From a virus (lineage: Duplodnaviria > Caudoviricetes), in the IMG/VR virus record IMGVR_UViG_3300044719_000253, positions 64,001 to 128,000 of that record: DNA of 64,000 nt, one strand, 5' to 3'. Numbering within the stretch: the first letter of the stretch is position 1; every line of letters begins with the position of its first letter. Below are positions 30,120 to 34,796 of the stretch, piece by piece. The translations under genes were made by a program, and so were the position numbers. The notes below the pieces were generated by a model. That model worked only from the letters and a program-made list of their open reading frames with translations, searched no databases and was not told where the DNA came from.

Positions 30120-30952
30120 TTGGCATACCCAGTCATCAGTTGCCGTACTTCGATCATGGTTTCAGAAATCAACTTCAAGTCGGGAATGAATTGTTCCAGA
30201 CTGGCTTTCACGGTCTCGCCAGGATTGCCATAACCGTCACTGGAGATCAGCGCTGCGGCAAACAACTCACGAGCGATTTGATAACCGGGCATGGTCAGAA
30301 TCGGTTGACGTCCATCGATCAGCTTGGCGTACAACTCGTAACTCATGCCAGGTTGAGTCCCTGCCGCCAGAATCGCCGGTACTTGGATGATCGTGGCACC
30401 TAAGGCTTGCAAATAAATCTCGAACAGCCGGTACGCGTGAATGCGTTCCCGGCGCTCGTGCAAGTCATCGGCGTCTTCTTCCAGTTCCGCCCGGTTGATA
30501 TTCTTTAAGCGACTAAAGAACATCTCCGAGACATCGTCGATGAGTTGCATGAATTGTTCCGCCGACCATGTGGTCACGCGATTGAGCATCTCCGCCAGTT
30601 TCTCTACTGGCCGGGTTTCCGCATCAGCAATCTTGAAGAACTGCTGAGGAGATTCGGTATTGTCAATACTTAACAAGCCAGAGACGATTTCGGTCTTTTG
30701 TTGGAGCGTACAGTCCTCCACCAACTGCACCGCGTGTAATCCGAGCAAATAATCCAGACCGCGGTGATAGGTGTTAAGGATTTCCAGCAACGGACCCCCA
30801 GAGTCCATGCCTTCGGCGGTCATCAGAATCTCTTCAATGACATGTTCATAGTCCATCTCGGCGCGCTGGAGTACCTCGTCCGCGGCTTTGATCATCGCTT
30901 TCTCTTCCACCGTGCTCTGGCTCGAAAGAAAGTCGCTGAGTAAATCTAACAT
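30116..30952 (-). CDS. Conserved protein (phiKZ gp79-like)
   Basis: 278 aa; 4-nt overlap with the vRNAP gene; synteny. Confidence 0.55.
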   Translation of the reverse strand: MLDLLSDFLSSQSTVEEKAMIKAADEVLQRAEMDYEHVIEEILMTAEGMDSGGPLLEILNTYHRGLDYLLGLHAVQLVEDCTLQQKTEIVSGLLSIDNTESPQQFFKIADAETRPVEKLAEMLNRVTTWSAEQFMQLIDDVSEMFFSRLKNINRAELEEDADDLHERRERIHAYRLFEIYLQALGATIIQVPAILAAGTQPGMSYELYAKLIDGRQPILTMPGYQIARELFAAALISSDGYGNPGETVKASLEQFIPDLKLISETMIEVRQLMTGYAK

Positions 30953-31176
30953 AATGGTTCACCTTGTGAAAAAGGGAAAGCGTGGGTCAAATGATGGGGG
31001 TCGCACACCCATTCTCTGACACGTTAAATGTTGATTTCTCGACAAATTGGATATTGTAAAAAAATATCTATCAAGTGCCATGCTCTGACAGTTGCCTTAA
31101 ATCAAGGCTTTTTAAAGAGACAACGTCTCACAGAGCAGTTTATTACAAAAATTGTAGTATTGCGGAGCTAGGGATT
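30953..31176. promoter_or_regulatory. AT-rich divergent promoter region with a structured leader
   Basis: Non-coding gap between divergent genes; three-way junction at 31081-31137 and a further hairpin at 31141-31159. Confidence 0.5.
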
Positions 31177-31752
31177 ATGACCAAGAAAAGTCAGGCGCGT
31201 ATGAAACGCGATGAAGTGAAAGAAGAAGCCAAGAGCCAAGGAATCGTCGGGATCTATGATCACTTGAATTCCATGTACACGAGTCAAATGCGGTTGTTCG
31301 AACAATACCGTAAGCTGATCGAGATCATCACCCATGACACCGTGGTACCGTTCTTGAAAAACATCACGCGGGTGGACACACTGCTCAAGGGATTCAATGT
31401 CGATATCGGCGATCTGCTCGACAAGACCCGCGTCACCCACAGCCTGCACACCGGCAAAACCGGGTTCGGTAACCCGGACGATGAAAACGAGTACTTCACC
31501 AACCTGCAACTCCAGCAAGACTACGTGGTCTATATGGGCGTGCACCAGCAGAACCTGCTGCCAGTGCTGTTGGAACTGCAAGAACATCTGAGTGGTGCAC
31601 TGGCCAAGATGCGATCGGTCGAAGCCGAAGCTGCAGCCACCACGCAAGCGCTCGACCAGCAACCGCTGATGCAGGCGCCCGTGGAAGCGGCAGCGGCCGA
31701 ACCTGCGGTTACGGGAAATCCGTACGAACAACCTGCTATCGATACCAAATAA
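31177..31752 (+). CDS. Hypothetical protein (phiKZ gp78-like)
   Basis: Start reassigned to MTKKSQ at 31177 (GGAG/AGGG upstream); helical, with an acidic tail. Confidence 0.55.
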   Translation: MTKKSQARMKRDEVKEEAKSQGIVGIYDHLNSMYTSQMRLFEQYRKLIEIITHDTVVPFLKNITRVDTLLKGFNVDIGDLLDKTRVTHSLHTGKTGFGNPDDENEYFTNLQLQQDYVVYMGVHQQNLLPVLLELQEHLSGALAKMRSVEAEAAATTQALDQQPLMQAPVEAAAAEPAVTGNPYEQPAIDTK

Positions 31753-31755
31753 ATC

Positions 31756-33372
31756 ATGACCGACCTCACCAATGTCCCGCCGCCGGGCGGGATTGAACAA
31801 CTCGATGAAGTCGCTGGCAGTACATCGTTAACTGACAGTACGCCGGCCCCGGTGGCGGACACCGAGACCTCGGCCGCGCTGGGCACTGAGCCGGTTCCTA
31901 CCGAACCAACACCGGTGACGGCGCCGGAAACCGCAGACACACCCGATGAAGCCTTCAAATGGCCGGCGCCGGACGCTCTCAACAACGCCACCACCGAGAC
32001 CGAGTACTTCTCCCCTATCGATGCAGATAAGTGGGATGATCTGGCGGCCACGATCGCTTTGCCGCCGGATACCCAAGCGCGTACCCTCAACTTCGGATCG
32101 CTGAATCCGCATGGCGAAGATCTGGTCAATACTCCGGAAGGCGAGCAATGGGCAGAAGTGATTTCGGAAGGTCTGGATCATGGCTCGTTCCACGATAACC
32201 TGCTGGCTGCCGCCAAACGCGAAGGGGCCAACTGGCAACAGCGTATCATGGTCGATGGTCGTCCACTCTCGATCGCAACGCCACGTCTGGGGGAAGACGA
32301 TGGTCCGCTGCTGACTGGCGAACGCGCCATGTTGCGGGTGAATGCGCTGATGGGGCGCGGTTCGATCATGTCGATCCCGCTCTGGCATTCGGGCTTCTGG
32401 ATCACGCTTAAGCGTCCGGGTGAGATTGATCTGCTCGATACGCTGCAAACCATCACGGAAAACAAGATCAGCTTCGGCCGCTCCAGCAATGGTCTGGCCT
32501 TTGCCAATCACGTGGTGGTCAGCCAAGGCGCGGTGATGGATCTGGCCATGCGCAATCTGTTCGAAACTTCGGTCAAAGGCTTTAACACGATCGATATGAT
32601 TCGGGCCAACATCAGCGCACTCGATATCCCGCTGATCGCCTGGGGTCTGGCTTGTGTGCTGCATCCGCGTGGCTTCCAGTTCGAACGAGCGATTCTTGAC
32701 GCCAATGGCACCAAAGCCAAGGTCGTGCGGGAACTGCTCAACGTGGGCACGTGCCTGCGGATCGACAGCAACAGCTTGAACGACTGGCAAGTCAAGCACA
32801 TGAGCCAACGCCGGACCGGCTCGATGATGCCTGAGTCGCTGAAAATTTACCGTGAGCATTTCGCACGCGGTAAACCGAAGTCGATCATGCTCGATGACAA
32901 AGTTGGCATGACCATGCGGGTCCCGAGTGTGGATGAATACATCAACGCCGGGCAACGCTGGGTCGATGAACTGGTTACCGCGGTCACGCAAGCTTTTACT
33001 CAGGATCTGTCCGAGCAACAACGCAACAACATGATTCTGGACCGGGCTAAAGCCACCTCGATGCGCCAATACGTGCACTGGATCGACACGATCGATCTGC
33101 CGGCCAGTGGGCAAGCCATCAAAGACATCGCCACCATTGAAATGACGGTGTCGAGTCTGTCGGGTGACGATGATGCGCGGGCGAAGTATTACGAGGCCAT
33201 GCGCAGCTTCATCAATGATTCGGTGATCGCTATCATCGGGGTGCCGCAAGTCCATCCGGAAGAAGCCGATCAAGTCAAACCGCGGTTCGAGAACATCATC
33301 CCGCTCGACCCGGTTTCGGTTTTTATCAGCCTCCTTTACCAAAAGACTCAACAAATCCGACAGCGTCCATAG
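31756..33372 (+). CDS. Conserved core protein (phiKZ gp77-like); possible tail/baseplate assembly chaperone
   Basis: 538 aa; IPLWHSGFWITLK motif; the chaperone role is inferred from its arrangement with the downstream ORF. Confidence 0.65.
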   Translation: MTDLTNVPPPGGIEQLDEVAGSTSLTDSTPAPVADTETSAALGTEPVPTEPTPVTAPETADTPDEAFKWPAPDALNNATTETEYFSPIDADKWDDLAATIALPPDTQARTLNFGSLNPHGEDLVNTPEGEQWAEVISEGLDHGSFHDNLLAAAKREGANWQQRIMVDGRPLSIATPRLGEDDGPLLTGERAMLRVNALMGRGSIMSIPLWHSGFWITLKRPGEIDLLDTLQTITENKISFGRSSNGLAFANHVVVSQGAVMDLAMRNLFETSVKGFNTIDMIRANISALDIPLIAWGLACVLHPRGFQFERAILDANGTKAKVVRELLNVGTCLRIDSNSLNDWQVKHMSQRRTGSMMPESLKIYREHFARGKPKSIMLDDKVGMTMRVPSVDEYINAGQRWVDELVTAVTQAFTQDLSEQQRNNMILDRAKATSMRQYVHWIDTIDLPASGQAIKDIATIEMTVSSLSGDDDARAKYYEAMRSFINDSVIAIIGVPQVHPEEADQVKPRFENIIPLDPVSVFISLLYQKTQQIRQRP

Positions 33373-33398
33373 AAGTCATCAGCCATGTCGCCCACCCG

Positions 33399-33830
33399 AT
33401 GTTCGGCGCCGAGTTCCTCGAAGAACCGACGCGGGTGGTCGAATTCTTTATCAGCACGCTCCAGCCGCTTTTGGCGCGTAAGGGTAAGATGACTGCAGTG
33501 GAAGCGTCGTTAATGTTACACCGTGCCTATTTGCTGCGTTACAACTTGGCCACTGGGGCTGAGTTAGATAACAACCCGGCGGCGTTGTTTAAGTTCCGGG
33601 AAGCGGAAGATCCGTATGTTGGTACTATGCTCGAAGACCATTTCGAACAGTTCCTGGATTTGGAAATCTTCCAGTACATGACGTGGGAGCAGTACATCAA
33701 CCTTCCACGGCATGAGTTGCAGATGGTGCGGCGCGTAGCAGAACGACGTCGGAAGCAAAAAAATAATGTTGACAGCAATTCTGTAAGAGATGCTGAAAAC
33801 ATGATGCGTAACATGGGCTTAGGGAGATAA
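33399..33830 (+). CDS. Conserved protein (phiKZ gp76-like); possibly translated as a -1 frameshift extension of 31756..33372
   Basis: No SD before the ATG; frame open back to 33219; MTWEQYINLPRHEL resembles gpT/gp51-type chaperone extensions. Confidence 0.55.
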   Translation: MFGAEFLEEPTRVVEFFISTLQPLLARKGKMTAVEASLMLHRAYLLRYNLATGAELDNNPAALFKFREAEDPYVGTMLEDHFEQFLDLEIFQYMTWEQYINLPRHELQMVRRVAERRRKQKNNVDSNSVRDAENMMRNMGLGR

Positions 33831-33832
33831 CC

Positions 33833-34276
33833 ATGGGGATCCGATATATCGAGAAAGGTGACTTGTTCACCAGTGGCGCCCAAGTGCTGGTGTGCCCCAC
33901 CAATGCTGCGGGTGTGATGGGGAATGGCTTAGCGCGGTATTTTCGAAATCGGGTCCCGGGTCTCTTTGGTGCCTATCAACGCCATTGCTCGCGGCATCGC
34001 CCCAGTCAAATGGTGCCGTTCGTGTTTCCTACGGACGACTTCATTGTGTACTGTTTGCACACCAAGCGCAAATGGTGGGAAGATTCCTCGACGACCATTG
34101 TCCGAAATGGTTTGCTCAAGTTCATCGCTTGGTGCGAACAAGAGCAGATTGACTCAGTGGCGTTGCCAGCGTTGGGTTGTGGTAAAGGAGGGCTTGATTT
34201 TTATCGGGATGTTAAACCGATCATGCACGAACTCCTGAAAGAGTCGAACATGTCCATTACGGTGTACTGTTCGTAA
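33833..34276 (+). CDS. Macrodomain protein, DarG/TARG1-like ADP-ribosyl glycohydrolase
   Basis: KGDLF, PTNAAGVMGNGLA, HTKRKW and LPALGCGKGGL are macrodomain signatures. Confidence 0.85.
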   Translation: MGIRYIEKGDLFTSGAQVLVCPTNAAGVMGNGLARYFRNRVPGLFGAYQRHCSRHRPSQMVPFVFPTDDFIVYCLHTKRKWWEDSSTTIVRNGLLKFIAWCEQEQIDSVALPALGCGKGGLDFYRDVKPIMHELLKESNMSITVYCS

Positions 34277-34336
34277 ACAAAAAAAGAAAGACGCATACGG
34301 CCTCCCTACCCGTGCGGGTAGGGAGGTTATGCCGTC
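34277..34336. terminator. Bidirectional terminator
   Basis: A-run, GACGCATA, stem CCTCCCTACCC-GTGC-GGGTAGGGAGG, TTATGCCGTC. Confidence 0.8.
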
Positions 34337-34796
34337 ACACGGAGTCATGATCGGATAAGGTCGGGAGCACATCGAACAACATCATTTTACCGTCGCGTTG
34401 ACCGGGTAAGAGATAACGTAAAGGTGGATCGGTTTCATTGGACTGGGGGAATTGACCAAACAACAAATAATCACGCAAAGCGATTGCGGCTTGATCGAGC
34501 TTGGTCAACGGGTAGGCACAGGTGGCGTGTGCGGGGCTGGGATGGCGCCAGACGCGTCCCACGGTCACGCTGACATGGTCACCCACGTCTTCTAAAAAGA
34601 CATTCCGGACCCCAAACGGGTCGCCCGGGGCTTCGGTCACATACAGACTGAGTTTGGTGAGGATCCGCTCTTGATGGGCGAATTGACCCATTAACACTTT
34701 ACCTTGGGTCAGCTTGATGCCATCGGTGATCACTTGGAGAATCTTAAGAAGTGCTGCCGTGCCCGATTGTTTCGGGCTGGTATGAATAAGGGCCAT
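34335..34796 (-). CDS. Hypothetical protein
   Basis: 153 aa ORF bounded by terminators on both sides; no recognised motif. Confidence 0.5.
   Translation of the reverse strand: MALIHTSPKQSGTAALLKILQVITDGIKLTQGKVLMGQFAHQERILTKLSLYVTEAPGDPFGVRNVFLEDVGDHVSVTVGRVWRHPSPAHATCAYPLTKLDQAAIALRDYLLFGQFPQSNETDPPLRYLLPGQRDGKMMLFDVLPTLSDHDSV

Follow-up and report, generated by a model that had tools for sequence, protein, structure and literature searches.

A candidate programmed −1 ribosomal frameshift in the phiKZ gp77-like gene family of jumbo phages

The gp77 locus and the proposed frameshift

The phiKZ gp77-like gene of a tailed virus (Duplodnaviria; Caudoviricetes) is predicted to contain a programmed −1 frameshift site shortly before its stop codon, through which a part of the ribosomes would enter a second open reading frame (ORF) and append a helical domain to the gene product. 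The gene lies in the 64,000-nucleotide stretch analyzed here, referred to as the window, which covers positions 64,001 to 128,000 of the IMG/VR record IMGVR_UViG_3300044719_000253. Such a frameshift had been proposed from the letters of the window alone (the sequence-only reading), and its placement at the first of two candidate heptamers is now supported by conservation across the whole family. On comparison of the relatives, it is highly likely that the gp77 family undergoes −1 recoding, and the probability that it is a programmed ribosomal frameshift that is still active at 33318-24 in this phage is put at about 0.75. This adds a new gene family to a known kind of recoding.

The elements of the locus in the window are the following.

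31756..33372 (+): ORF1, the phiKZ gp77-like gene, 538 aa; the zero-frame product
33318..33324 (+): candidate shift site G_GTT_TTT, with GTT (Val522) in the P-site and TTT (Phe523) in the A-site as zero-frame codons
33324..33372 (+): dual-coding overlap, with the ORF1 zero-frame tail ..ISLLYQKTQQIRQRP* and the start of the −1-frame extension, YQPPLPKDSTNPTAS..
33324..33830 (+): extension in the −1 frame, with 168 codons and a stop; its domain is conserved and predicted to be all-helical
33339..33345 (+): second heptamer, C_CAA_AAG, in zero-frame phase
33384..33407 (+): motif HVAHPMFG of the extension, which begins in the 26-nt spacer and has ATG 33399 as its sixth residue
33399..33830 (+): ORF2, the gene that automated calling would report; 143 aa, −1 frame relative to ORF1

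ORF1 matches phrog_4585 (E 5e-89) and, in a tblastn search against 199 phage records, PHIKZ077. ORF2 matches phrog_12109 and phrog_7580 and is homologous to FLC9 gp361 and LUCX_95. The stop codon of ORF1 occupies 33370-72, which leaves an apparent spacer of 26 nt before the ATG of ORF2 at 33399. Recomputed coordinates and frames agree with the sequence-only reading: the −1 frame is open upstream of this ATG as far as 33219 (the preceding TGA is at 33216-18) and overlaps ORF1 by 154 nt, and both heptamers lie in phase at the positions proposed. Ahead of 33399 the open −1 frame of the window contains no ATG, GTG or TTG. Counted in the extension, the ATG at 33399 is codon 25.

In the proposed mechanism, most ribosomes would read through to the stop at 33370-72 and release the 538-aa protein, while a fraction would move one base back on G_GUU_UUU (33318-24). 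There, tRNA-Phe could re-pair perfectly (UUU to UUU) and tRNA-Val at two of three positions (GUU to GGU). The slipped ribosomes would then translate the apparent spacer and the annotated ORF2 in the −1 frame, and the long form would consist of gp77 residues 1-523 followed by the 168-aa helical domain. Computed from the window, this fusion measures 523 + 168 = 691 aa, the size that had been estimated for slippage at the first heptamer.

Conservation of the arrangement among relatives

Relatives were collected via ORF1, since ORF2 is too diverged: both a DNA-level search of phages and a tblastn search with ORF2 alone returned nothing useful. The sample comprises 38 distinct gp77-type loci (handles of the type L005 are used below where single loci have to be told apart), and many of the statistics cover the first 30 only. 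Seventeen named phages with annotated records are included, namely FLC9, FLC1-1B, phiKZ, LucasX, 201phi2-1, RAY, SA002, Bacillus phage AgentSmith, Xoo-sp14, Proteus phage 10, SPN3US, Halocynthia phage JM-2012, Vibrio phage Yong XC32, PhiPA3, Centimanus, Totoro and Wellington. The other loci come from 12 IMG/VR contigs, one metagenome contig and seven contigs reached from a gp77 profile search, which gave 1650 cluster representatives; the 150 closest were inspected. A metagenome scan with a single protein gave no match, and one with a 4-sequence alignment gave one new short contig.

The junction was aligned across these relatives, a check that had been suggested together with the original proposal, and the −1 relation was found in 38/38 loci. 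In each of them a run of T's lies 9-38 codons ahead of the gp77 stop, and the −1 frame is open from this T-run for 149-192 codons, until the small ORF downstream terminates (one locus ends at the contig edge). The arrangement is conserved in phages with hosts from Pseudomonas to Bacillus, at ORF1 identities as low as about 21% and ORF1 sizes of 476-672 aa. None of the 17 named-phage records joins the two ORFs, and no description of a gp77 frameshift was found in the literature searched, a scope that mostly excludes subscription journals; both agree with the earlier impression that the event was undescribed in this phage family. Mentions of 'gp77' in the literature turned out to follow the numbering of other phages (a capsid decorator of Goslar, the small terminase of PCH45 and an RNA polymerase subunit of PhiPA3).

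A homopolymer run is a classic place for length errors, and a sequencing error that splits one long gene, or else a decaying pseudogene, could in principle create the same picture. However, 38 loci that derive from independent isolates and assemblies, with runs of 5 to 8 T's, all share this −1 relation, and the window and L005 differ at the site by substitutions, with no insertion or deletion. Moreover, the sequence of the zero-frame tail past the run (..TLLxQKxxxIxxR) is conserved, as is the length of this tail in most loci, and 0/150 cluster representatives are fused in frame. The chance of an artefact is next to negligible.

Those 150 representatives measure 403-604 aa and all stop at the end of ORF1; two further searches for longer fused homologues also found none, which is weak evidence. 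The conserved zero-frame tail and the lack of in-frame fusions suggest that both the short and the long form matter, and both products would be needed in a set ratio.

Probable translation of the extension from the T-run

The extension is homologous in 30/30 of the first loci by alignment and constitutes a single family, a predicted helical domain with the mid-region motif Y-x-x-x-x-G-I-x-x-H. Its N-terminal motif, H-V-x-x-P-x-F-G, lies 3' of the gp77 stop, yet in most loci ahead of the first ATG, GTG or TTG. The first start codon is found only at extension codon 85 in phiKZ, 88 in AgentSmith, 68 in RAY and 51 in L013. When computed from the stop density of each gene's own −1 frame, the probability that the start-less stretch is open by chance is 5e-8 in phiKZ and 2.5e-8 in Bacillus phage AgentSmith.

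The stretch also carries a coding signature in the −1 frame. When close pairs are compared, substitutions are most frequent at the third codon position of this frame (first/second/third positions 2/2/9 for L002 versus L013 and 7/6/12 for RAY versus SA002), and the two substitutions between the window and L005 (0/0/2) are both synonymous in it. Within the overlap 33324..33372, the differences between these two loci are synonymous in frame 0. The spacer-encoded residues ..ISHVAHP, upstream of the ATG of ORF2, are conserved, with synonymous changes only relative to L005 and L006.

The frame change can be mapped to the T-run itself. In several AT-rich genomes the nearest upstream stop in the −1 frame is only a few nucleotides away from the run (3 nt in L016, 5 nt in L024, 12 nt in L003, L019 and L027, and 14 nt in L020), while no locus has a −1-frame stop 3' of it.

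The proposed shift site and its variants

The run forms a heptamer T_TTT_TTN with zero-frame X_XXY_YYZ phasing in 26/38 loci. The remaining sites read G_TTT_TTT in three loci (L001, L009, L026), G_GTT_TTT in eight and T_GTT_TTT in one. The codon choice at this site is under selection: the Phe codon is TTT in 30/30 loci, even where TTT makes up only 9-17% of the Phe codons of the same gene, and Phe523 is invariant in alignment A3.

The G_GTT_TTT of the window is positionally homologous to the T_TTT_TTN of most relatives. Its sister loci L006, L007 and L033 have the canonical GTT TTT TTC, L005 has GTT TTT TCC and the window GTT TTT ATC, so that five T's are left in the run. Of the 150 cluster representatives closest to the window, F-F is present near the C-terminus in 143 and V-F-x in 7; with the window and L005 there are 9 V-F-x loci, in which GTT TTT is found in 9/9 and a preceding G in 8/9. 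A Val ahead of F-F is present in only 34/143 F-F members. The eight loci with G_GTT_TTT represent about four lineages, and in L034, L035 and L037 the form is exactly that of the window, G_GTT_TTT followed by A with five T's. The first start codons of these three loci (extension codons 39, 83 and 44) lie past the motif, and in their lineages the extension is reachable only from gp77. On the strength of these three loci without a start codon ahead of the motif, the variant very probably works as a shift site. Heptamers of the G_GU type are a recognised class, decoded by bacterial ribosomes in T7 gene 10 and also used by cardioviruses (PMC5009743).

The same fusion could be produced if the phage or host RNA polymerase stuttered on the T-run and added one U in some of the mRNAs. 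PhiKZ-like phages transcribe with their own multisubunit polymerases, which are unusual, most relatives carry 7-8 T's, and a stimulator in cis for ribosomal slipping was not detected. The protein product would be identical, so that the two mechanisms cannot be told apart completely by sequence, notably in relatives with 7-8 T's. On the other hand, runs of five T's (the window and four other loci) or six T's (eight loci) are short for known slippage by bacterial polymerases, the run lies in the X_XXY_YYZ phase in 26/38 loci, and the short-run variants are held to G_GTT_TTT (G before the Val codon in 8/9, Val always GTT), a constraint that is relevant to tRNA re-pairing but not to stuttering of the polymerase. 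Flanking letters that make sense for re-pairing, together with a run that is short for the polymerase, favour slipping of the ribosome, and transcriptional slippage is considered unlikely.

What the window adds is that the family would have two interchangeable shift sites, U_UUU_UUN and G_GUU_UUU, a further point in favour of ribosomal slipping over polymerase stuttering and a set of natural variants for measuring efficiency.

The second heptamer, C_CAA_AAG, had also been proposed as a slip site. At the nucleotide level only close relatives of the window retain it; elsewhere the letters are CAG AAA or CAG CGC, and the data are explained without it. It was rejected as the main shift site and is at most a minor or back-up site.

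Possible initiation at the internal ATG and the search for stimulators

Several observations weigh against an active ribosomal frameshift in the window. With five T's, its site is the weakest of the family, and the ATG at 33399 could allow independent synthesis of the extension. In the window, a −1 frame that is open from site to ATG is within chance (P about 0.31), so that the significance of the open frame comes from the relatives, and there the combined P-values are inflated by relatedness: the summed log10 P of −46 for the start-less stretches of the first 30 loci is an overcount. In addition, a consistent Shine-Dalgarno-like element upstream of the site was not found, nor was a conserved stimulatory RNA structure on its 3' side; the region of the window folds no better than shuffled sequences (z 0.10) and the 60 nt after the T-run have a mean folding z of −0.36 over 30 loci. 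Hairpins 3' of the site occur in some loci (z about −2.6), whereas most have none. A cis stimulator is absent at some known frameshift sites.

One stem had been pointed out in the window as a hindrance to independent initiation. Its arms, CCACCCG (33392-98) and CGGGTGG (33432-38), are indeed complementary. However, the pairing is present in the window and L005 only and is broken in L006, L007, L033 and L038-L040, and the region does not stand out from the shuffled sequences mentioned above. In the two loci that have it, the arms encode conserved residues (HP.. and ..RVV), and the pairing may be a by-product of coding.

The observations on the ATG lead to another explanation, in which the two genes are separate in this phage: the extension would be translated from 33399 only, after decay of an old shift site by a change of the second Phe codon from TTC to ATC. 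This would account for the absence from the window of the canonical T_TTT_TTC that L006, L007 and L033, its sister loci, have, for a site-to-ATG frame that is not significant alone, and for the Met that the window shares with L005, L033 and L038-L040. Yet L033 combines this Met with the canonical heptamer, hence the Met is no sign that the site is lost. A conserved motif surrounds the ATG; the upstream part of this motif is conserved with synonymous changes only, as described above, and among relatives the position of the Met varies between M, N, L, Q, A, S, E, G, F and K. The heptamer that remains in the window is of a recognised type (PMC5009743) and is followed by A, as in the three loci that have no start codon ahead of the motif. 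As the sequence-only reading had noted, a Shine-Dalgarno match ahead of 33399 is missing (duplex +1.0 kcal/mol); about half of the genes of the window, ORF1 included, lack a clear one, so this is weak evidence.

Judged from the alignment, the family does not rely on initiation at the position of ATG 33399. Independent initiation may take place in the clade of the window beside the frameshift, as the two could coexist, and a complete separation of the two genes is unlikely. The reading retained is a programmed −1 frameshift at 33318-24.

Comparison with known recoding systems

By analogy, the closest case in mechanism and site type is gene 10 of phage T7 (10A/10B). In both, a −1 frameshift close to the gene's 3' end gives, or in gp77 would give, a minor fraction of the product a C-terminal extension, and a classical stimulator is not found nearby. 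The T7 site belongs to the same non-canonical class as that of the window, in which X_XX is G_GU followed by a U-run, and is decoded by bacterial ribosomes (PMC5009743). The two differ in that the T7 gene encodes the major capsid protein and an extension of about 50 residues, whereas gp77 is a non-capsid core gene with a 168-residue domain predicted to fold, and in that most gp77 members use U_UUU_UUN.

The sequence-only reading had presented the locus as the jumbo-phage equivalent of the lambda G/GT and P2 E/E' tail assembly chaperones. The conserved −1 frameshift of these genes (lambda G/GT, P2 E/E+E', Mu, HK97) is the subject of Xu, Hendrix and Duda (2004), as cited in PMC5009743. As a mechanism the parallel stands: a −1 frameshift towards the end of the gene lets one start give both a short and a long form (for gp77, by comparison with relatives only), the arrangement outlasts the divergence of the sequences and there is no lineage with a fixed in-frame fusion, which suggests in both systems that the ratio of the two forms matters. 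A similar role is conceivable as well, in view of the fold likeness to T4 hub-assembly proteins discussed below. The parallel fails in gene context and size. Unlike the chaperone genes, gp77 is not located between the tail tube and tape-measure genes; it lies beside genes for a virion RNA polymerase subunit, gp79- and gp78-like proteins and a macro-domain protein. The chaperones have about 100-150 aa, compared to 538 aa for ORF1 (476-672 in relatives). Sequence comparison with the tail-assembly-chaperone families of Pfam gave no match to gp77, and the hints in this direction are below threshold (Foldseek match to 2ob9 with a probability of 0.21; language-model score of 0.83 to Phage_TAC_19).

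In Escherichia coli dnaX (tau/gamma), a programmed −1 frameshift on a homopolymeric heptamer likewise gives two forms in a set ratio. There, the shifted frame stops at once and the frameshift product is the shorter one, and a Shine-Dalgarno-like element and a stem-loop act as stimulators, none of which was detected in gp77.

Fold and possible function of gp77

Searches of Pfam, NCBIfam and PDB sequences with ORF1 and with the extension returned nothing. Predicted structures were obtained for ORF1 (pLDDT 70, pTM 0.73) and for the extension (pLDDT 75, all-helical), and a Foldseek search of the PDB gave no match for either model; a wider structure comparison of ORF1 found helical look-alikes only (Z 6.2 or below). 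When the ORF1 model was compared with the predicted viral structures of BFVD, many matches beyond its own family were to proteins of about 245-285 aa whose names designate an assembly protein, a chaperone or a subunit of the baseplate hub (Foldseek E 1.5e-4 to 4e-3, probability 1.00, TM by target 0.49-0.59), where both sides are models and the names are automatic.

These names point to T4 gp26 and gp51 (PF12322, T4_baseplate; hub subunit and hub assembly protein). Weaker leads for ORF1 are a language-model score of 0.90 to a PF12322 cluster and an atlas match with a TM of 0.46. The PF12322 profile detected 1/30 members at E 0.0079, short of the curated cut-off, and found no match in five genomes, in a search that was silent in its control genomes too. 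When the ORF1 family was compared by profile (hhalign) with T4 gp26 and gp51 as single sequences, no significant match resulted, and gp77 is about twice as long as these proteins. Taken on the similarity of the predicted models, gp77 is probably a relative of T4 gp26/gp51. From this distant likeness of folds we infer that the pair of short and long gp77 may act in the assembly of the baseplate hub or the tail.

A purely late role in assembly fits poorly with an observation in phage Churi, whose gp256, listed as a homologue of phiKZ gp077, is among the proteins picked as early-expressed from the proteome (PMC11849849).

According to the T4 record (L030 3803-4429), gene 26 yields the full-length protein and a C-terminal form, 26', from an internal start. 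If gp77 is truly related to gp26/gp51, two forms per hub-assembly gene would be a shared theme realised by different means. T4 genes 26 and 51 are not known to contain a frameshift.

Other features of the protein concern its N-terminal region and a cysteine motif. Residues 1-115 of ORF1 (31756-32100) are of low complexity and rich in Pro, Thr, Glu and Asp. About 75-120 residues at the N-terminus are predicted to be disordered, with a pLDDT <50 at residues 1-74 and 101-124, and the length of this region varies widely in relatives, which is the source of most of the size range of 476-672 aa. A CPxC motif is found about 20-45 codons before the T-run in L003, L004, L012, L016, L025, L026, L034 and L037, just upstream of PxLIPLD..FF, and suggests a zinc-binding element in these gp77 relatives. 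The clade of the window has GVPQVHPEE in its place, with no Cys there.

Neighbouring genes

The gp77-like gene is accompanied by genes for the virion RNA polymerase beta subunit (gp80-like) and for gp79-like and gp78-like proteins, and by a macro-domain gene. The latter (33833-34276, +; PF01661, E 1.2e-9; phrog_335 'phosphatase') starts 2 nt past the stop of the extension with a strong GGGAGA ribosome-binding site ahead, and also follows the extension in L038, L039 and L040. It appears to share a transcription unit with the extension in the clade of the window. A scan of 30800-34500 for promoters and terminators found no signal that separates ORF1 from ORF2. In L037, an uncultured relative, the usual gp78-like slot directly upstream of the gp77 homologue is occupied by a Tad2-like gene (746-1039; PF11195, anti-Thoeris family).

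Implications for jumbo phages

The gp77 family is common to all nucleus-forming jumbo phages examined and to their Bacillus-infecting relatives. If the frameshift takes place, every public annotation of these genomes would mis-describe the locus, with a small 'hypothetical protein' of arbitrary start in place of the extension. The long product, of about 650-715 aa, would be missing from proteome databases, and mass-spectrometry searches therefore could not find it.

A conserved stimulator in cis was not detected, and the minority site G_GUU_UUU is shared with cardioviruses and arteriviruses, in which a viral protein switches frameshifting on. On these two grounds, it is imaginable, though a long shot, that a factor in trans tunes gp77 frameshifting in the course of infection, such as a phage protein that binds ribosomes or the condition of ribosomes in the vicinity of the phage nucleus. 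In that case the ratio of short to long form would shift between early and late infection, and no phage would have provided an earlier example of a −1 frameshift under protein control.

An active frameshift would add a recoding event to a group of phages that is intensively studied for its cell biology and for therapy, and mutants that are slip-dead or locked in frame would provide a handle on an uncharacterised core gene.

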